From IMG/VR virus record IMGVR_UViG_2687453623_000004: a stretch of DNA of 64,000 nucleotides. One strand, given 5' to 3'. The translations under genes and the position numbers were made by a program. The notes under the pieces were generated by a model. The model saw only the letters and a list, made by a program, of their open reading frames with translations. It was not told where the DNA came from and did no database searches. Positions 51,793 through 60,829 of this stretch are shown piece after piece. The stretch comes from a virus (lineage: Duplodnaviria > Heunggongvirae > Uroviricota > Caudoviricetes). The first letter of the stretch is position 1. Each line of letters opens with the position of its first letter.

Positions 51793-52983
51793 TTAATTGC
51801 TGTTAACCGAGGTGACCAGATTTGCCAGGTATTTATCGGTAATACGCTGGCGCAGGGTCAGGTTTTCAAGAGGAGGCACCGGTGTATAGTCGTAGTCGAT
51901 ATACAGTTTTCCGGCCTTGAGGGTTTCCGCATCGTTGGATTCTTCGCTGAACCAGCAGGTCGCATCCACGATATAGCCGTTTGTTTTCAGCTCACGGAAT
52001 TTGGCATTGATGCCGTCAACGATGTCGCGAATCAGCGTTGCGGTGATGGGCTTGTCCACCGCCCACATGTGCGCCTCAGCCATCGTGTCGGCAAGCACCT
52101 GCGCGGTGCGGGTGTAGTTTTCAAAGAGGAACAGCGGGTCATCAGAGCAGGTACGGTTACCCCAGAAGCGGAAACCGTCACGGCGAATCAGCGTTGTGAC
52201 GCCTGACTCGTTAAGCAGGTCAGCATCGGTACCGGACTCCTGCAAATCCCAGAATACAGAGGCGCTGATGCCGGTAACACCGCTTACCCCGACGTTGGAC
52301 AGCGTTTTATGCCAGCCCTGCTCCTGGTCGATTTTAGCACGCAGGCCCAGTGCACGAGCGGTGGCATACGCGGTGGCGGTGGTACTGGCGACCGTATCCC
52401 ATGCGAGGAAATCCGGCCAGATGACCATCAGCTCACGCTGGCTGAAATTCTGGCGGTAGGCTTTCACCTCGGAAATGGTCTTACAGCCCCATGCGCTGAT
52501 ATACCCGAAAGCGCGCAGCTTCTGACAGACTGATGCCAGTGCGACGGCAACCTCTTTGGTGTCCAGTCCCGGCACACCAAGAATACGCGGTTTAACACCG
52601 GTTACCGACTCCGCCGCCAGCAGGGCTTTCAGTCCGGTGTACTGACCGTTTTCGTCGGTGGTGCCGATGATATTGGAAATGGTCTGCGCAAGTTTCGTTT
52701 CTTCGTCGTCGCCGGTGCCGTCTTCCACACGCACGACAACGGTGACCGGTTTTGACTGGTCGGCGATGGCCTGCAACGATGCCGCCAGCGTGCCTTTTTT
52801 ACCGGCCTTTGCAATTGCGCTCTGCACATTGGTTATCAGCACCGGTTTATTGAGGGGGAAGGTTTCCGCATCCGCATCGCTGGCCGTGCAGACCATGCCG
52901 ACAATGGCCGTGGATACGGTGGAAATGACGCGGGTGCCGTCGTTAATCTCCAGCACCTGCACGCCGTGATGATAGTCACTCAT
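51793..52983 (-). CDS. FI: Tail sheath protein FI
   Basis: 396 aa. Confidence 0.85.
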   Translation of the reverse strand: MSDYHHGVQVLEINDGTRVISTVSTAIVGMVCTASDADAETFPLNKPVLITNVQSAIAKAGKKGTLAASLQAIADQSKPVTVVVRVEDGTGDDEETKLAQTISNIIGTTDENGQYTGLKALLAAESVTGVKPRILGVPGLDTKEVAVALASVCQKLRAFGYISAWGCKTISEVKAYRQNFSQRELMVIWPDFLAWDTVASTTATAYATARALGLRAKIDQEQGWHKTLSNVGVSGVTGISASVFWDLQESGTDADLLNESGVTTLIRRDGFRFWGNRTCSDDPLFLFENYTRTAQVLADTMAEAHMWAVDKPITATLIRDIVDGINAKFRELKTNGYIVDATCWFSEESNDAETLKAGKLYIDYDYTPVPPLENLTLRQRITDKYLANLVTSVNSN

Positions 52984-53070
52984 CCGTTTAACTCCGTGGT
53001 TAATGGGTGCAACTATTTTCTGTTGTGCAGAGCATGAGACGCTATTTGACCTGGCTGGCCAGTGGATGAA

Positions 53071-53106
53071 ACAACAAATAAAGAAAAGGCGGGCAATCAG
53101 CCCGCC
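53071..53106 (-). terminator. Rho-independent terminator upstream of FI, terminating the cargo gene transcript
   Basis: GGCGGGC-AATCA-GCCCGCC perfect stem followed by TTTTCTTTATTT on the minus strand. Confidence 0.5.
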
Positions 53107-53294
53107 TGCCTTGATTTGTTCTCACTCAGCTTCCAACTGACAAGTTACATAATCAAAACGCTATTAAATCTGACAGTCTGCTTTGAGCGATGAACGGACA
53201 TAACGACTCACTAATGACTAATTTGCTAACCGCTTCCGACCCAAAACTGTCGGTTGCATGATAATTAATCCAGCAAGCAAATTCATAGTCATTG

Positions 53295-53771
53295 CTATAT
53301 GTTACTGGGATTATTAAAAGGGATAATACTGGCCAATCCGTCATCAACATCAAGACCATAGGTAACCGCTATTTCTGCCAGAGAGTTACCACACTTTTGT
53401 CGCAGTTTAAAAAGGGCTCGCTCAAGTATGGATATTTGAACAGGATGATCAAGTTGGATAAAGTGAGGGGAGCCAACGCTGTCACAGAATTCTTGGCATG
53501 CTTTTCTCATTTTCCTTAATTGTTTTGCTAAATGTGAATCGCTCGGCAAACCTTGTAGGACTTTAGTCAATTCAGATCTAATGTTGATAACACTCGAAGT
53601 GCAATGACTAGCACCCTCCATGTCGACAGGATTGAAAAGAACGCGCTTGTCCTCAAGAAAAATGACGATCTTCTTCGCTTCGTCAGTTTCTATTATTGGA
53701 GCATTCCACTGAATCCCGAATATGGGACAGCTAAGGCCAGTAATATTTTTATAGATTTGTTCAAATTTCAA
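53295..53771 (-). CDS. Cargo protein of unknown function (158 aa) in the G/FI hotspot
   Basis: AT-rich; apparent TTG start 7 nt after a strong AAGGAG; own terminator; no family recognised. Start codon position by my count is 53770-53772 (one-nt discrepancy with the track). Confidence 0.5.
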   Translation of the reverse strand: MKFEQIYKNITGLSCPIFGIQWNAPIIETDEAKKIVIFLEDKRVLFNPVDMEGASHCTSSVINIRSELTKVLQGLPSDSHLAKQLRKMRKACQEFCDSVGSPHFIQLDHPVQISILERALFKLRQKCGNSLAEIAVTYGLDVDDGLASIIPFNNPSNI

Positions 53772-54030
53772 AAGTCACTCCTTGGATGGACTCTGAGCAT
53801 ATAAAACGCCATACTGATAAACGGACTCGGTTCAAGTAATCTGTTAGATAGCATAACTCGGAACCACTGTAAAAATAGTTGTTAACATACCTAAAAGTGA
53901 CAGCGGAGGCAAGATTCCCTCAGCCGGAGCGATAAATTAGGCATAAGTTATACACACATTAGTAATAATCACTAAAGATATTCTAATTTTTTATGCCGAC
54001 TTAATATGATTTCCCGTCAATCAGGTTAGC

Positions 54031-54054
54031 GTCCGCTCCTGGCACAAAGCGGAC
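54031..54054 (+). repeat. 24-bp hairpin repeat copy 1 (GTCCGCT-CCTGGCACAA-AGCGGAC)
   Basis: Perfect 7-bp stem; second copy at 54954-54977 with 21/24 identity. Confidence 0.6.
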
Positions 54055-54159
54055 GAGGTAACTGAGCTAAAGGTCCGCTGTGAGCGAAAAGTGGACATTA
54101 GAGTTACAAAAGTAAGTTTAAATCATCCAAAATATTACAATATCCTTATCTATCTGATA

Positions 54160-54189
54160 TTGTTATGATAAAAAGTTCCTGAATATAAT
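54160..54189 (+). promoter_or_regulatory. Sigma70-like promoter for the membrane-protein gene
   Basis: TTGTTA, 18-bp spacer, TATAAT; AGGTGG ribosome-binding site 9 nt before ATG 54212. Confidence 0.45.
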
Positions 54190-54211
54190 CGATAGTAGGT
54201 GGTTATTTTCC

Positions 54212-54589
54212 ATGAAATCAATTTTAGAGGTTTTTACTCAAGGAAATACTAAAGAAAAACTGGCTGTTATCGCTGATCTCACAACCATTGCGGGAATATC
54301 GATAGCAACTATTATTGCTGGTTTGTTAACCCTAGTTGCAAAAACAGATAAACTAGATGTTGGAAATCTGTTTGGAGTTGTCATAATATCTCTGCTCGGA
54401 TTGGCTGGTGTTTGCTGTTTTATGGCCCTATTTATTTGGGTTATAACCCAAATGTCTAAACCATGGGGAACACCTCGGGGGATTCAGTCCTTAGTTAAGT
54501 GTGCTATTTCCCTTATCTTTATCTGTATTTTTTTGCTGGCTGTCTTTACATTTTATGAGGTTATTTCTTCGATGAGAATACTCTATTGA
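54212..54589 (+). CDS. Small membrane protein (125 aa, three predicted helices), unknown function
   Basis: AT-rich; hydrophobic stretches IAGISIATIIAGLLTLVA, VVIISLLGLAGVCCFMALFIWVI, AISLIFICIFLLAVFTF; own promoter and terminator. Confidence 0.5.
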   Translation: MKSILEVFTQGNTKEKLAVIADLTTIAGISIATIIAGLLTLVAKTDKLDVGNLFGVVIISLLGLAGVCCFMALFIWVITQMSKPWGTPRGIQSLVKCAISLIFICIFLLAVFTFYEVISSMRILY

Positions 54590-54614
54590 ATATAAAATCA
54601 GCTCTCATAACTTA

Positions 54615-54643
54615 AAAGAGGCCTTCTATAAGGTCTCTTTTAA
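54615..54643 (+). terminator. Rho-independent terminator after the membrane-protein gene
   Basis: AAAGAGGCCTT-CTAT-AAGGTCTCTTT followed by TAATTG. Confidence 0.5.
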
Positions 54644-54953
54644 TTGAATTACCATCCTATTAATCCAGAGAATCTTTATCATCACAAAATAACAAACATT
54701 GGAGATAATTAATAAACTAATCATCCTCAAGATCATCTTTATCTTTACAAAGCGAGTGTCAGTATTCATCCTAACATCAAGTGCAGAATGGAGTATTTTA
54801 TGTATCTTCATGCCGCTTGCACGCTTTATCTCGTTTTTTGTAGGTGGTGTACTATCTCTAAATGACCATTTATATGGTGTAAGACTACTGACTTTAGAGG
54901 GCTATGATCTACATAGTTCTTCTAACCATTATTCTCCAAATAAACTTTACAAC

Positions 54954-54977
54954 GTCCGCTCCTGGCACGGAACGGAC
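54954..54977 (+). repeat. 24-bp hairpin repeat copy 2 (GTCCGCT-CCTGGCACGG-AACGGAC)
   Basis: Same orientation as copy 1; an AATCAGG-like flank lies on the opposite side (CCTGATTAGG). Confidence 0.6.
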
Positions 54978-55642
54978 AGCCTGATTAGGTTTTACTCTGT
55001 GCCATAGATGAGTAATCTCATACCAGAGCTAATACGATTTATTGCGGCATTTCTGGCCATTCTATATCCGGAGCATTTTCCGGCTGAACGCGATTCAGTA
55101 GCACACGGTATTTTTTCCAGTGTGTCAGGCTTAACTTTTCTTCCTCGGTAGCCATATCTAAATCGACAGCATCCTGCAGAGTGCCAATAATTTCACCGGC
55201 ATATGCAATCTGCTCTTTCTTCTGAGACTCCGCCGCTCTGACAAGTGCATCATGCTCTGCATTCTCATCATTCACCCACGCATTTCCGTTCCATTTCTGA
55301 TAATCCCCATCCGGGGAAATGGCTGTCACGTCTGGAGGTAATGCACCAAGTTCAGAAATATAAATGGCTGCTCCCGTTTTCGTTTCGTAGACAGTCTTTC
55401 CGCGATGATCTTCCATCAACTCCCATTTCATTTCATCTGCATTGAAAACGGCTGCATAACCAGCAGGAATATCAGGTGGTGCAATATCTGTACTGTTTGC
55501 AGGCAGACCTGTATGCGGCGGAATATATGCATCACTTTCGCCAATAAACTCATTGGTTGCGTATTACCGTGAAGGAGATCGGTGAGTAACATCGATGGAG
55601 ATCGGTTCGTGTCACTTTCACAGAACCGTTTTTAAATTACCT

Positions 55643-56392
55643 TCACTGATCTCCTTCGGTCAACGGAGATTGTATTTTCCGCATTGATTCTCCTTTAAGT
55701 TCGATCTTGATACTGCCATGAACCAGTCGATCTAGGATGGCATCCGCATGTGTGGAGTCTCCGATCATTTTGTACCAGTTTTCCACCGGCAACTGGCTCA
55801 CTACGATGATTGAGCCTCGTTGGTACATCAGATCCACTATTTCCAGCAGGTCGCTACGCTGTTCTGATGAGAGAGGTTCCAGCCCCCAGTCATCCAGAAG
55901 CAGCAGATCGCTATTATTCAGCCTGGTCAAAAGTTTGCTGTATCTTCCATCAGCATGCCCCTGATAGCACTGTTCCATCAGCGCTTTAAGGCGATAATAG
56001 TAGACCTTGTATCCCTGTCGGCAGGCATTATGACCAAGTGCACATGCCAGGAACGTTTTACCGCTGCCGGTGGCCCCGGTCAGTAAAATATTTTGTTTCA
56101 GGGTTAACCAGTTTCCCTGACTGAGTGAACGGATGAGGGCCCTGTCCAGCCCTCTATTGTTACGATAATCCAGCTTTGATAACTCAGCATTAAGTCTGAA
56201 CCGTGCATGTTTGATCAGACGCTCTGCCTTCCTGTTTTCACGGCAGGTTAGTTCTTCTGCTGTCAGTAATGACAGGCGTTCTTCGAAGCCCAGCTCCTGG
56301 TATGTGCCCGGTTGAGCAAGTTGCTTTTTAAGCGCATCACGGAAGCCGGTGAGTTTAAGTGCGGTCAGTTGTTCGTAAAGATGATTCATCAT
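55643..56392 (-). CDS. istB: IS21-family helper ATPase IstB
   Basis: 249 aa; Walker A LTGATGSGKTF. Confidence 0.85.
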   Translation of the reverse strand: MMNHLYEQLTALKLTGFRDALKKQLAQPGTYQELGFEERLSLLTAEELTCRENRKAERLIKHARFRLNAELSKLDYRNNRGLDRALIRSLSQGNWLTLKQNILLTGATGSGKTFLACALGHNACRQGYKVYYYRLKALMEQCYQGHADGRYSKLLTRLNNSDLLLLDDWGLEPLSSEQRSDLLEIVDLMYQRGSIIVVSQLPVENWYKMIGDSTHADAILDRLVHGSIKIELKGESMRKIQSPLTEGDQ

Positions 56393-56403
56393 TGGATCCC
56401 GTA

Positions 56404-57945
56404 TCAGTGGTAATACTCACTGCCGCGTACGTTTTCGTGTTCCATCGTGGATAACAGATCTGGTTTTGGATCCTGAACAGGTTGTTTATCCAGACCTTTT
56501 TCCAGGATCGATTTAATACCTGACAGACGCCATACCTTTGTTTTCAGAGCTCTTGCACATGCTGCATTAAGTCTGGCTTTACTGTATTTTTTATGAAGGT
56601 TCAGGAGTCCAAGGCAGAAGCGATAGCTTTGTTCCGGATGTGGACGAGAGTTCAGTATATGAAGCACATAACTATGAGTTTCACTGCCTATGTGCCCCGC
56701 CCATTCCAGAAGACGCTCTGGCGTCCAGGTGGCATGCTGTCGATGAGCTTCAGGCATGTGCTCGTTGCGGGTACTGTAGCCATAAGTACGCTTGCGCGGG
56801 TGCACAGCAACCTCCTGCCCCTGATTGAAGAGTCTTACCAGTTCTCCGGAGATCCATGCTTCCAGTTGCTGGCCTAACAGCGAACATGGAACCGAGTAGT
56901 AATGTTTGTCGATTTCCACGTGGTAATCGGCATGAACTCTGACTTTCTTCACCAGGGTGTAACTGTAACTGGCTTCAGGAAGAGGCTTCAGTGCGGGTTT
57001 ATCAAGCTGGATGAAGAGTTCTGCACGTGAATAACCCAACTTCTGCATTATTTTGTTATTCAGTCTTTCCAGCAACTCCCGAATGCGCTGATTAAGCGAT
57101 GCAAGGCTGTAGAAGATCTCATGCCTGATTCGGGCCATGATCCAGCGTTCAACAACCTGAACGCCAACTTCAGCTTTGGCTTTATCTTTCGGTTTACGTG
57201 GCCGCGCAGGCAAAACTGCGACATTATAATGCTCAAGCATCTGCTGGTAGGTAGGGTTAACGTCAGGATCATACTTACATGCCCTGGATGTGGCGCTTTT
57301 CAGATTGTCCGGAACAACAAGTTCAGGAACGCCACCCAACCACTGGAAGCAGCGAACATGACTCATCACCCAGTCTTCAAGCTGCTGAGACCAGGTGGCC
57401 TCTGCCCATGTGTAACTTGATGCCCCGAGAACAGCTACGATGACCTGAGCAGTTCTTATTTCTCCGGTCTCAGGGTCGGTAACGCCAACGGTAGGTCCAC
57501 AGTAATCAACGAAAAGTTTTTCGCCAGCTTTATGTACCTGACGCATTGATGGTGAAGTGGTTTTGAGCCATTCACGGTACATCCGGCAGTAATGGTTATA
57601 GCTGTAAAAACCGCCTGGATTACGCTCACAGTATTCTTCCCAGAGTAGCTGCAGCGTCACGCATTTATTACGCAGTTCCCGGTGTACTGTAGCCCAGTCA
57701 GGCAGAGAGTGCTTCTTCATCTTAACCTGGGTCTGAAGGAACGCATGTTTTAGTTTTGTATCATCCCATCCTGTAGGTAAGGGCCACTGCTTTATGCCAA
57801 GTTGAGCCGCCCGATTAGCATATCTGGATACAACGGAAGGGGAGATTGCAAGACTACGACCAATTTGTCGATGGCTGAGTCCAACACCGTATTTAAGCCT
57901 AAGAATTTCTTTAAGTTTTCTCATAGAAATTGGAACTGTTGGCAT
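56404..57945 (-). CDS. istA: IS21-family transposase IstA
   Basis: 513 aa; N-terminal HTH; upstream of istB. Confidence 0.85.
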   Translation of the reverse strand: MPTVPISMRKLKEILRLKYGVGLSHRQIGRSLAISPSVVSRYANRAAQLGIKQWPLPTGWDDTKLKHAFLQTQVKMKKHSLPDWATVHRELRNKCVTLQLLWEEYCERNPGGFYSYNHYCRMYREWLKTTSPSMRQVHKAGEKLFVDYCGPTVGVTDPETGEIRTAQVIVAVLGASSYTWAEATWSQQLEDWVMSHVRCFQWLGGVPELVVPDNLKSATSRACKYDPDVNPTYQQMLEHYNVAVLPARPRKPKDKAKAEVGVQVVERWIMARIRHEIFYSLASLNQRIRELLERLNNKIMQKLGYSRAELFIQLDKPALKPLPEASYSYTLVKKVRVHADYHVEIDKHYYSVPCSLLGQQLEAWISGELVRLFNQGQEVAVHPRKRTYGYSTRNEHMPEAHRQHATWTPERLLEWAGHIGSETHSYVLHILNSRPHPEQSYRFCLGLLNLHKKYSKARLNAACARALKTKVWRLSGIKSILEKGLDKQPVQDPKPDLLSTMEHENVRGSEYYH

Positions 57946-58204
57946 AGGTATCCTTTACCGGAATGGCAAAAGATACAGATCAACACACCTGTGAAGTTCC
58001 AATAACATTGATGGAGATCACTGAATAACAAAATGAGTCAAAAGTGATCTCCATCGATGTTATTCAGCGATCTGTTCAAATGTTATTACCCGATCTCGAT
58101 GGAAGTTATTGAGTGATCTCCTTTCATGAAAATACGCACATTGGTTCCATCAAGTAAATTGAAAACGCGGATAGTTTGTGCTTCTGCACTCATTCTGAAA
58201 GCCA

Positions 58205-60829
58205 TTATGCAAGCCTCACAATATAGTTAAATGCGATGTTTTTGACGGTGTTTTCTGTATTACCTGTAGCATTAACGGTAATAGAGTGCCCGTGTGAGCC
58301 AATAGCAACCGTGTGTGAATGTGCACCAATACCAACCGTATGATTATGTGCACCAATATCTACCGTGTGGGCATGATTCCCGGCAGCTCCTGATGTGCCA
58401 TTAAACGATGGGTTGTCAAAGCCTGTTTTACCGGTTTCACCATTAGTATTGGCATTCCCTCTGTAAATGGTATGTGTATGGTTACCAGTGGTATTAGTGG
58501 TTTTTGTTCCGTAGTTAAACGTACTGACTGTCTTCGTCCCGTAATCAAACGAACTGGTTGTTTTCGTTCCCAAATCCGTATTTGACGCACTGGCACTGTG
58601 AGTATGCGATTTAATCCCGTCCTGTTCCTGTGACAATACGGCACGCCCACTGGCGGGTTTGCCCTTGATTGTCCAGCCGCGCATATCAGGAATAACACCA
58701 GAAGGATAGGCTATAGCCAGTTTCGGATATGCTGCCTTATCAAACGTCTGCCCCTGCATGATTGCATAGCCTGCAGGTGGTGTATCTGATGGCCACGGCA
58801 GCGGAACACCAGGCGGAAACGCTTCAATATTTGCCGAGCCGTCAAATTTTACGCCGTTAATTGTCCTTGCCGTTTTCAGCTTTGTTGCTGTAGCCGCATT
58901 GCCGGACAGTTCACCAGAAAGGCCTGCACTGAATGTCTGTTTTGCCTCCCATGTCTGGGCTTCGTCGATAATTGGTAGCCGACGAATATTGAAGCTACGC
59001 TCCCCAGGATTGCCATATAAGCGGACTGTAAAAAAACGATAGTTGGTTTTGTTTGAAGTGCTGCGCCATACCTGCATTGAACGGGCGACACCTCCGCCTT
59101 CACTGGGGCCAACAGTGATATTTATCAGGTTAGTATCAATGACGCCCCATTCCATCCCATCGGGAATATTGGTCATATCTGAAAGCCTGACAGTTATCAT
59201 GCTGCCCGGTATAAAGTCGTAGGTCTGCCAGTCCAGACTGGATAACCTGTCGGTAACACCGCCGACACCTAATTTAGTGAGTAATGATTTTGAGTTGTAT
59301 ACTTCCGCCCATTCCCCCCAGTCAGTTTCACCGCTGGCGCGGGTTCGCTGAAATGTCCGGTTTTTATAGGCATCCGTTGCTGAAACAGTCGTATATGTCT
59401 GGATATACGATTCAATATCACAACGTTTTTTCACCTCAACTATTGAGCCAACAGCAAGATCTTTAGAGTCGGTGACAGGTGCATTTGTGGCCTGTTTCGT
59501 GACGCTATAAATACCAGGCTTTAAAAGGTCATCAAGATCCCCTGAATAAGTCCATCCCGTGGACTGATACCCAACAGCAATCCAGTCCTCCCATTGTGGA
59601 TTTTCTGCATCCCATGAGGCTGTCAGTCCGCGAATGTACATAGTCCCACTACGGGTGGTATAACGTTGCATCCTCCCATACAGACCGCCTTCAAAGACTT
59701 CCAGAATACCCTGTCCAAAACTCCCTTCCTCCGGGAAATGACGGTCAAATGAGGCTATTGATGTACTGCTATTGCGCCATATTCCCAGGTGTTCCGCACC
59801 ACCTAAAGAATTCAGGTCAATTGACGTGCTTAATGGGCGAGTCCCGCTTGTAATAGCTCTCCATGCACTCCATACAGGACTGACAGGGTTCCATTCTGCA
59901 TCAAGCATCCGAATGTAAATATTACCGGTTCGGGTGGTGTAGCGTTGTGTGCAGTGAAAGCGACCAGCATTGAATACTTCCAGAACCCCATTGCCTTTAT
60001 CTTCAGGGTAACCAGACTCTGGTTTTGCAGTGGATTGTGACGGACATGACCACGTTCCAAGATATTTTTCTTCTGGGCCATAGGAATCAAGATTGTCAGT
60101 GGTTGGAATCATTCCATTGTGTTTCATAAACGTCAGGCTGGTAACGCCAATATTGTCCAGAAAAGCGCCCTTATCTGGAATATCGCCACCGTTCTGGTCT
60201 TTCTGCAGACGTTTCTCAGCATTGTCATAGGCTGCTTTTACTGCCTTTGGCGTTGCTGCCAGCTTTTCACTGGTGCTGTTTGTTGCACTGCTTAACTGAG
60301 TAAAACCTTTTTCTGTCAGCGTGGCGTCAGGATGGCGGCGGGACTGCTCATGCTCTGCGATTTTGTCATCGACGTAATCCTGCGTCGCCATCACTGTGCT
60401 GGCATCAATACTCAGCTCAACAGACGCCACGTTACTGACAATAATGACCATGCGGCAGGTCTGCGCACGCCCGGAGCCTTCAGCCAGTTCAGGCTTATAG
60501 CTTTCTGCCATGTTAGCGACCGCAATCAGTGTTCCGGCATCATCATACAGACCAAGTTCACGCATCCAGAAGCCGCCCACTTCTGGCGGTACAACCAGTT
60601 CAGCCACGATATAGTTTTTATTCTTGTTATCCACGCTGACTTTATTCAGAGCGTGACGCCAGACCTCATGCACCAGTTTCGTCTGACCGGCATCCGGCAC
60701 CGGCAATTTGCCATTACCGTCACCCACGGCCATTGCAGACAGGTTTACTTTTTTCCCGCCGGGGACAGTGGCGGCTGCCAGCTTTGCGGCTCCGGCAGTA
60801 GTGATAACGGTTTTAAATTTCGTGCTCAT
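58205..60829 (-). CDS. H: Tail fibre protein H (mosaic, longer than P2 H)
   Basis: 874 aa; P2-like N-terminus; C-terminal region with GAHxHTV repeats and ...[12 protein letters not shown] end shared with the Mu-like fibre cassettes. Confidence 0.8.

Follow-up and report, generated by a model that had tools for sequence, protein, structure and literature searches.

The window, a 64,000-nucleotide stretch of DNA from a Caudoviricetes virus record (IMG/VR IMGVR_UViG_2687453623_000004), contains a P2-like prophage in which two nearly identical 24-bp elements lie on either side of a membrane-protein gene. What these elements do is the question that this locus raises. A reading of the sequence alone described them as direct repeats, each able to form a hairpin, that bracket the gene, and proposed that they might be scars of a cassette insertion by recombination, binding sites for a regulator or a miniature mobile element. 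The answer given here is that the 24-mers probably are double-stranded site-specific recombination sites, which form the ends of mobile cassettes exchanged in an integron-like or dif-module-like manner by a recombinase acting in trans. The description of the sites and of the cassettes between them is solid, and the assignment of a particular recombinase to them is probable.

Sites and cassettes in the hotspot

The elements are located in a hotspot of about 2 kb between the tail sheath and the tail-fiber assembly genes. Its G+C content is 0.30–0.42, as opposed to about 0.55 in the backbone, and comparison with phage P2 shows that it corresponds to the Z/fun hotspot of that phage. The two 24-mers, at positions 54031–54054 (site B) and 54954–54977 (site D), are 21/24 identical, as first described. 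Their similarity is not due to chance, since with up to three mismatches only B and D are found in the 64 kb, and none in 100 dinucleotide-preserving shuffles. The two copies are therefore real, but they are not the whole family. A separate repeat search recovers both together with a third copy at 54072–54096, and the comparison of E. coli alleles, combined with a scan for the site consensus, reveals two related 24-mers, sites A and C, which the sequence-only reading had overlooked. The consensus scan of the window gave no comparable score outside these four hotspot sites.

All four sites consist of 9-nt inverted arms (GTCCGCT..) around a 6-nt center, and two centers occur, GAGCGA in sites named C-type and TGGCAC in sites named B-type. 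Site A (53176–53199, plus strand), a C-type site with the sequence GTCTGCTTTGAGCGATGAACGGAC, or GTCTGCTTT GAGCGA TGAACGGAC, is the left boundary of the hotspot; its left arm and the adjoining flank AAATCTGACA are P2 backbone, and its right arm belongs to the unit that follows. This unit is the first cassette, with a cargo (53200–54030, minus strand) made of a gene for a DUF6650 protein and its flanks, with a G+C content of about 0.40 against about 0.55 for the backbone. Site B (54031–54054, plus strand; GTCCGCTCC TGGCAC AAAGCGGAC) is a B-type site and the right end of the DUF6650 cassette. It is followed by an 18-nt spacer (54055–54072, plus strand; GAGGTAACTGAGCTAAAG) and by the C-type site C (54073–54096, plus strand; GTCCGCTGTGAGCGAAAAGTGGAC, or GTCCGCTGT GAGCGA AAAGTGGAC), the left end of the membrane-protein cassette. 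The spacer and the two outer arms that adjoin it constitute the linker of a 66-nt B-spacer-C composite. The cargo of the second cassette (54097–54953, plus strand) includes the membrane-protein gene and is the sole cargo in the prophage of E. coli KSC207. The B-type site D (54954–54977, plus strand; GTCCGCTCC TGGCAC GGAACGGAC) is the right boundary of the hotspot, and its right arm and flank are P2 backbone; it lies 61 nt past the stop codon of the tail-fiber assembly gene, likewise in phage P2. The order in the window is thus A, DUF6650 gene, B, 18 nt, C, membrane-protein gene, D.

This layout changes the meaning of the original pair. Site D does form the right end of the membrane-protein unit, but its left end is site C, and site B ends the neighboring DUF6650 unit. 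B and D are equivalent right-hand, TGGCAC-centered ends of two adjacent cassettes and not the two ends of one. The AATCAGG motif that had been seen to the left of the first copy (54019–54025) and, as CCTGATT, to the right of the second (54980–54986) exists on both sides, but at distances of 5 nt and 2 nt from the sites, and hence out of register. It was rejected as a part of the element, as it is missing from the logo of 168 sites and the flanks are explained otherwise: the left copy accompanies the DUF6650 cargo in other genomes, and the right one represents a local form of the P2 backbone flank TGTCAGATTAGG.

Alleles of the hotspot and mobility of the units

In E. coli KSC207, the hotspot comprises the tail sheath gene, the membrane-protein gene and the tail-fiber assembly gene, and the DUF6650 gene is absent. 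This allele is 897 bp shorter, which is exactly the A-to-C spacing in the window. Its sole left-hand site is a hybrid, GTCTGCTTT GAGCGA AAAGTGGAC, whose left part is that of A and whose right part is that of C, with a crossover that can be resolved only down to the invariant center. The DUF6650 unit is also found outside P2, beside paoD in a chromosomal locus and in an island rich in insertion sequences (IS). These units begin with ...GAGCGA TGAACGGAC and end with GTCCGCTCC TGGCAC..., and their outer arms vary. In the loci L002 and L003, the DUF6650 homology stops inside or at site B, where the right arms differ (AAAGCAGAC and ATAGCAGAC, respectively).

The P2 side of the junctions behaves in the reciprocal manner. 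The hotspots of P2, WΦ, L-413C, KSC207 and MS7163 have the fixed halves AAATCTGACA GTCTGCTTT GAGCGA and TGGCAC AGAGCGGAC TGTCAGATTAGG, unrelated cargo and differing inner arms, and in 96 phage records the homology to the window ends at 53190–53201, within or at the end of site A. In each site, the cargo-facing arm moves along with its cargo and the outer arm is kept by the context, which places strand exchange in or beside the center.

The suggestion that the 24-mers are recombination scars at cassette boundaries thus receives support, as the alleles differ by whole units that end inside them; the comparison of hotspot alleles, which had been put forward as a check, shows that the 24-mers do mark the unit ends. 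The two other proposals, a regulator-binding site and a miniature mobile element, gain no such support: the units hold genes with their own promoter-like and terminator-like signals, and no transposase is present.

The site family beyond the window

A 15-mer of the site, GTCCGCTCCTGGCAC, has 123 matches in IMG/VR, 94 of which are complete palindromes compared with a chance expectation of about 1%. Among the 123 matches, 20 have a C-type site at +42, the P2 flank is present in 23, and 11 have a flank typical of Rac-like lambdoid prophages. The 66-nt composite is present at a coverage of at least 80% in 994 of 5426 complete E. coli genomes and is matched in 1579 of the 5426 overall, at 1–5 places per genome (median 1). 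It is outside annotated genes in every match listed for these genomes.

The logos of 168 B-type sites (AAY GTCCGCT CC TGGCAC .. AGCGGAC) and 153 C-type sites (GTCYGCT.T GAGCGA .. AGCGGAC RTT) show a 9-6-9 layout with invariant centers. The 24-mers agree in this with the generic layout of tyrosine-recombinase core sites, which is made of inverted arms and a 6–8-bp center. Together with their flanks, the cargo-side arms form a pair of inverted repeats, with AAY GTCCGCT.. at a cassette's right end and ..AGCGGAC RTT at its left end.

The sites follow one another in a regular order. Among 227 consecutive site pairs, 120 are C-to-B segments of 0.4–9.8 kb (median 1.66 kb) and 58 are B-to-C composites, 44 of these with a start-to-start distance of exactly 42 nt; another 14 pairs are B-to-C with more than 60 nt between the sites, and seven are strand switches. 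The order C-cargo-B-18 nt-C-cargo-B recurs in the other elements sampled. In 37 distinct composites, the length of the spacer is shared and its sequence is little conserved.

Homology between loci also breaks at the sites. Breakpoints are located within 12 nt of a site center in 16.8% of cases compared with 0.4% for random positions, an approximately 40-fold enrichment, and they bracket the 24-mer. The two arms of a site segregate independently, both in P2-like phages and beside the recombinase gene described below.

After some B-type sites (L002 3380–3430; also L007, L013, L033 and L044), the next element is a recurrent class of sequence, ...CATGGRG..TCRGKGGGW..., and not a C-type site. This sequence has a superficial likeness to a tRNA arm, and a tRNA was dismissed as ARAGORN calls none there. 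The cargo in other elements (L128 7255–11387; L012 8634–12877; L126–L128) includes a 1229-aa reverse transcriptase, dynamin-like GTPases and an AIPR abortive-infection protein, and further a GAF-EAL protein, DUF2971 and ETEC_3214-family proteins.

A tyrosine recombinase linked to the sites

Arrays of these sites in lambdoid prophages, CP4-like islands, an IncF plasmid and one P2 hotspot include a 200-aa protein annotated as a "site-specific integrase". It is a tyrosine recombinase made of the catalytic domain only, with a PF00589 score of 69.1 bits against a cut-off of 27.1. Residues R51, K79, H148, R151, H174 and Y183 are invariant in 22 homologues, and a reading of the motifs suggests that they represent the catalytic R-K-H-R-H/W-Y set. 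The protein is not a member of the better-known families, as it scores 49.6 and 32.1 bits against the XerC and XerD equivalogs (cut-offs 335 and 330), 15.9 bits against the integron integrase TIGR02249 (cut-off 265), and 25.5 and 18.2 bits against the FimB/FimE models NF007371 and NF007370 (cut-offs 222 and 221), which it resembles in size (~200 aa). A sequence search against PDB chains gave no match at an E-value of 0.001 or better. The family comprises at least 7998 clusters at an E-value of 1e-10 or better, relatives with 60–97% identity occur throughout the Gamma- and Betaproteobacteria, and the recombinase is present in 773–928 of the 5426 E. coli genomes (14–17%) and also on plasmids. 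The SCU-111 gene (WP_001305361.1) has a match of 100% identity over the 723-nt query in an E. coli Nissle assembly.

The gene has a fixed position relative to the sites. Among 17 loci retrieved by the protein alone, a C-type site with the fixed arm GTCCCTTAT is located 62–65 nt upstream of the start codon in 15, and a B-type site, whose fixed arm AGGGCTGCT is part of a hairpin, is located 19–22 nt past the stop codon, also in 15. Both flanking sites are present in 14/17 and at least one in 17/17, with variable outer arms. The recombinase gene is thus located where the 18-nt spacer would otherwise lie, at an inter-cassette linker. Near-identical recombinase genes have unrelated neighbors, and the similarity breaks exactly at the site. 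In 15 enterobacterial recombinase loci, 44 sites were found in 276 kb, 35 of them with canonical centers, in contrast to only 1–5 matches of the composite per 5-Mb genome.

The sites vary with the enzyme. In the loci of Pseudomonas and betaproteobacterial homologues (60–66% identity), the arms remain G[GT]CCGCT, and the centers are TGGCCG or GGGTCG. These two centers are present both beside the gene and nearby, in 20 of 49 sites, compared with 14 sites of any center in shuffles. As judged from these sequences, the site centers change with the recombinase clade and the arms stay conserved. With its genomic linkage and this co-variation, the recombinase is a candidate for binding and cleaving the 24-mers.

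Upstream of the recombinase gene, the 5' leader (L130 9960–10006; L125–L128, L151, L158, L183 and L194) contains a predicted stem-loop that pairs the Shine-Dalgarno sequence and, in some clades, also the start codon. Six divergent clades retain it although their stem sequences differ, for example CAAATCTCC...GGAGATTTG as opposed to TTGTCCTCC...GGAGGACTTG, and single-sequence folds give z-scores of −2.4 to −8.1. Such a stem-loop might indicate that translation of the recombinase is masked. A decayed copy of the recombinase, with 194 aa, an altered C-terminus and degenerate flanking sites, is located in the P2 hotspot of E. coli MS7163 (L004 3315–3899). Its neighbors are a DUF5677 gene and a truncated version of the membrane-protein cassette of the window.

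Proposed mechanism of cassette exchange

In the proposed mechanism, a recombinase would bind the arms of two sites and exchange strands at the center. The enzyme is most likely the 200-aa recombinase, which would catalyze the reaction in trans from a gene located elsewhere; that gene sits at an inter-cassette linker in about 15% of E. coli genomes. Enterobacterial cassettes carry a C-type site at the left end and a B-type site at the right end, and they would travel as circles closed by a B-spacer-C junction. In the P2 hotspot, one C-type and one B-type site form a permanent frame. The difference between the GAGCGA and TGGCAC centers is hypothesized to make the two types incompatible, so that a left end would not recombine with a right end.

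The layout of the window is consistent with a swap in two steps. An 897-bp DUF6650 circle would have been integrated, by exchange between two C-type sites, into a prophage similar to that of KSC207 that contained the membrane-protein cassette only, and a later exchange between B and D would delete this older cassette (923 bp).

Several observations weigh against this mechanism. Neither a circular junction nor an empty site was found, nor any cassette gained or lost very recently between near-identical backbones, and the closest allele that lacks DUF6650 is just 94% identical. Neighboring sites of the same type, C-to-C or B-to-B, make up 28 of the 227 pairs, and the sets of loci compared are redundant and partly selected via the site itself. 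The window contains no recombinase gene of the 200-aa family over its 64 kb, and the sites occur in 18–29% of E. coli genomes compared with 14–17% for the recombinase. In the enzyme, there is no recognizable core-binding domain, and the AlphaFold2 model built from 22 close homologues is poor (pLDDT 48.7). The arms next to the recombinase gene, GTCCCTTAT and AGGGCTGCT, do not match the consensus arm. A hybrid center, TGGCTC, occurs in one locus, and the units in Pseudomonas show all combinations of the two centers, which are not tied to particular ends, so the idea of heterospecific ends may not hold generally.

Alternative explanations

The main rival to a dedicated recombinase is recombination at short shared boundary sequences, where the segments between the 24-mers and 66-nt linkers would be swapped by general or phage-encoded homologous recombination, without a dedicated enzyme. 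With 24 nt conserved to 80–100% and a linker of fixed length, there is enough sequence for short-homology recombination. The excess of sites over recombinase genes and the lack of such a gene in the window would also follow, and both homologous and illegitimate recombination are discussed in recent work on the hotspots of P2 and P4. The palindromic 9-6-9 design is, however, unexplained by this proposal, as are the two types of center at defined cassette ends and the placement of the recombinase gene between sites in 15/17 loci. Neither does it account for arms that are conserved from Gamma- to Betaproteobacteria with centers that track the recombinase clade, nor for a spacer that is fixed in length yet poorly conserved in sequence. 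Exchange by short homology alone is therefore considered unlikely.

The hairpins raise a second possibility, with a low probability, that folded single-stranded DNA is recognized, either by an HUH-type transposase in the style of IS200/IS605 or REP/RAYT or in an integron-like single-strand pathway. Cassette systems that use folded sites do exist, as exemplified by attC of integrons. Each 24-mer can form the 7-bp stem that was originally noted, and on the minus strand, where the three differences between B and D are all G-U compatible, the stems extend to 10 and 9 bp. This wobble pattern is, however, not general across the sites. The individual stem pairs have 16–98 variants each with just 0–4 double compensatory changes, and an intact 7-bp stem is missing in 47% of the B sites and 69% of the C sites, which shows conservation of sequence and not of structure. 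Such uncompensated variation indicates that the palindrome represents one binding arm present twice in double-stranded DNA and not a selected fold of RNA or single-stranded DNA; judging from the variants, the ability to form a hairpin follows from the inverted arrangement of two protein-type half-sites. Moreover, the unit boundaries are inside the palindrome, not beside it. A tyrosine recombinase is found beside the arrays; no transposase is annotated in the cassettes examined, and no HUH gene was seen beside the arrays, although no systematic search for HUH genes was made. A REP/BIME repeat was likewise rejected, because the composite is present at 1–5 places per E. coli genome and not at tens to hundreds, and the concern that the motif might be a generic element of the REP type does not hold.

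Least likely of all is a role in RNA, as terminators, mRNA-stabilizing 3' structures or regulator sites for the hotspot genes, since the stable minus-strand RNA folds (−18.9 and −20.2 kcal/mol, z about −3.3) and the position of D just after the tail-fiber assembly gene are set against the lack of compensatory covariation, the absence of any match at the sites in an Rfam scan of 52900–55200 at a permissive threshold, and a variable gene orientation, in which B lies on the 5' side of the DUF6650 gene and C on that of the membrane-protein gene, so that there is no consistent 3'-end position. An intrinsic terminator in particular was rejected. No T-run follows B or D, as had been observed before, and a terminator scan that does detect a hairpin at 53087–53107 is empty at all four sites, so they are not simple terminators; the annotated V-operon terminator of P2 is a separate element, located elsewhere.

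Other features of the prophage

The prophage is defective, because ISEc12 splits its tail-fiber assembly gene, its tape-measure gene carries a frameshift, and on the side where it ends, with ogr abutting the host gene pflB, there is no integrase or immunity region. To the left of the hotspot, the backbone contains the tail sheath gene, an FI homologue (51793–52983, minus strand). To the right is the C-terminal part of the tail-fiber assembly gene, a G homologue with PF02413 (55039–55431, minus strand), which is interrupted upstream by an IS21-family element, ISEc12 in RefSeq (55557–58205), comprising istB (55643–56392, minus strand) and istA (56404–57945, minus strand).

The DUF6650 gene (53295–53771, minus strand) encodes a protein of 158 aa (Pfam PF20355, E-value 2e-16; phrog_29952), and the membrane-protein gene (54212–54589, plus strand) encodes a protein of 125 aa (phrog_4155), for which a Pfam search gave no match. 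PADLOC gave no matches for either cargo protein. In the second cassette, the membrane-protein gene is preceded by a promoter-like site (54160–54189) and followed by a bidirectional hairpin (54612–54643). The stretch between this hairpin and site D (54644–54953) is an AT-rich region of about 310 nt, with a G+C content of about 0.30–0.33 and no convincing open reading frame. It is kept in KSC207 and could encode a small gene or an RNA.

Between the hotspot and FI, there is a G+C-rich hairpin with a T-run on the late-gene strand (53087–53107, minus strand), distinct from the 24-mers. T-runs are present on both sides of the hairpin, and it is likely the true terminator that shields the promoter of the F operon from read-through. 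A sub-threshold Rfam match to IS009 inside the tail-fiber assembly gene (55076–55200, minus strand; 36.8 bits against a gathering threshold of 117, E-value 2e-6) is probably meaningless.

Implications

Anti-phage systems have some of their best-known reservoirs in the P2 and P4 hotspots, and the sites together with the recombinase suggest a concrete mechanism for the exchange of hotspot genes in many phages, islands and plasmids. It is a real possibility, somewhat short of an even chance, that an undescribed system of Gamma- and Betaproteobacteria, composed of a 200-aa recombinase masked by its leader, 24-bp sites of two types and a fixed linker, shuffles defense and accessory genes among P2 hotspots, lambdoid prophages, CP4-like islands and plasmids. 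The 24-bp sites and the candidate enzyme would explain the presence of the same gene in phages, islands and plasmids and would make the exchange directly testable. They would also give exact rules for delimiting cassettes, with new defense genes to be sought between C-type and B-type sites, and might yield a compact natural tool for two-site cassette exchange. Site-defined cassettes may supply untested defense genes. Should the link to the recombinase fail, the sites still give precise cassette boundaries for the annotation of P2-like prophages.

Comparison with known systems

The hotspot in the window is the same locus as the Z/fun "moron" hotspot of P2, where variable, low-G+C, non-essential genes separate G from FI in P2-like phages. 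Nilsson et al. 2004 (Mol Biol Evol 21:1) invoke site-specific recombination and links to other enterobacterial genomes in their title, which suggests that site-specific insertion at the P2 locus and these links have already been proposed there. Ten diagnostic oligomers of the sites are absent from the searchable literature, which excludes that paper, and publications that cite it give no details. A search for cassette or tyrosine-recombinase systems in prophages turned up only integron work. The movement of genes in P2 and P4 hotspots, including between unrelated elements, is called not understood (PMC9122126; PMC13586616). In these two papers, Rousset et al. 2022 and a 2026 paper in NAR, respectively, no sites or enzyme are named and the mechanism of exchange is left open. 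A paper in PLoS Biology (2026) on recombinases as defense markers deals with small serine recombinases and not with the 200-aa tyrosine family.

The similarity to integrons is considerable. In both, small tandem cassettes are each bounded by a recombination site, and the junction sites are hybrids of a cargo half and a context half. A tyrosine recombinase gene is located beside a site with an atypical, attI-like proximal arm, and arrays of C-cargo-B-spacer units follow. Arrays without the recombinase would be served in trans, in the manner of attC clusters without an integrase, and the cargo is often phage-defense-like. Unlike in integrons, however, the recombinase has 200 aa and is not IntI, and its gene is located in the linker, with sites on both sides and not only at one end. 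The sites are fixed, conserved 24-bp palindromes of double-stranded DNA without structural covariation, as opposed to the folded attC sites of 57–141 nt. Each cassette has two types of site and there is a fixed 18-nt linker. The cassettes also have their own promoters, can face either way and are up to 9.8 kb long.

The pdif modules of Acinetobacter are Xer-dependent dif modules on plasmids, whose movement has been inferred from comparative genomics. They, too, are discrete gene modules between short arm-center-arm sites of tyrosine recombinases in alternating (inverted) orientation, are found in many backbones and lack their own recombinase. The dif consensus is GGTGCGCATAA-TGTATA-TTATGTTAAAT, with an 11-6-11 layout, and is served by the XerC and XerD recombinases. 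The sites described here show no sequence similarity to this consensus, and all four of their arms share one consensus, which implies a single recombinase and not a XerC and XerD pair. Their hosts are prophages, islands and plasmids of Enterobacterales and other Proteobacteria.

The rAID (recombinase-associated acquired interbacterial defense) clusters of Bacteroidales, as Ross et al. 2019 (Nature) reportedly described them, are arrays of small accessory genes beside a tyrosine recombinase, with repeated intergenic sequences, and were called integron-like. By that description, they are set apart by their phylum, recombinase, repeats and cargo of immunity genes.

A further parallel is provided by engineered cassette exchange with heterospecific lox or FRT sites. 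There, too, the two framing sites share arms and differ in the center; exchange at the first pair yields a co-integrate of two cassettes, as in the window, and the second pair resolves it. The system described here would be a natural one, with a putative incompatibility of the GAGCGA and TGGCAC centers. It works like an integron or like pdif modules but falls within the definition of neither.

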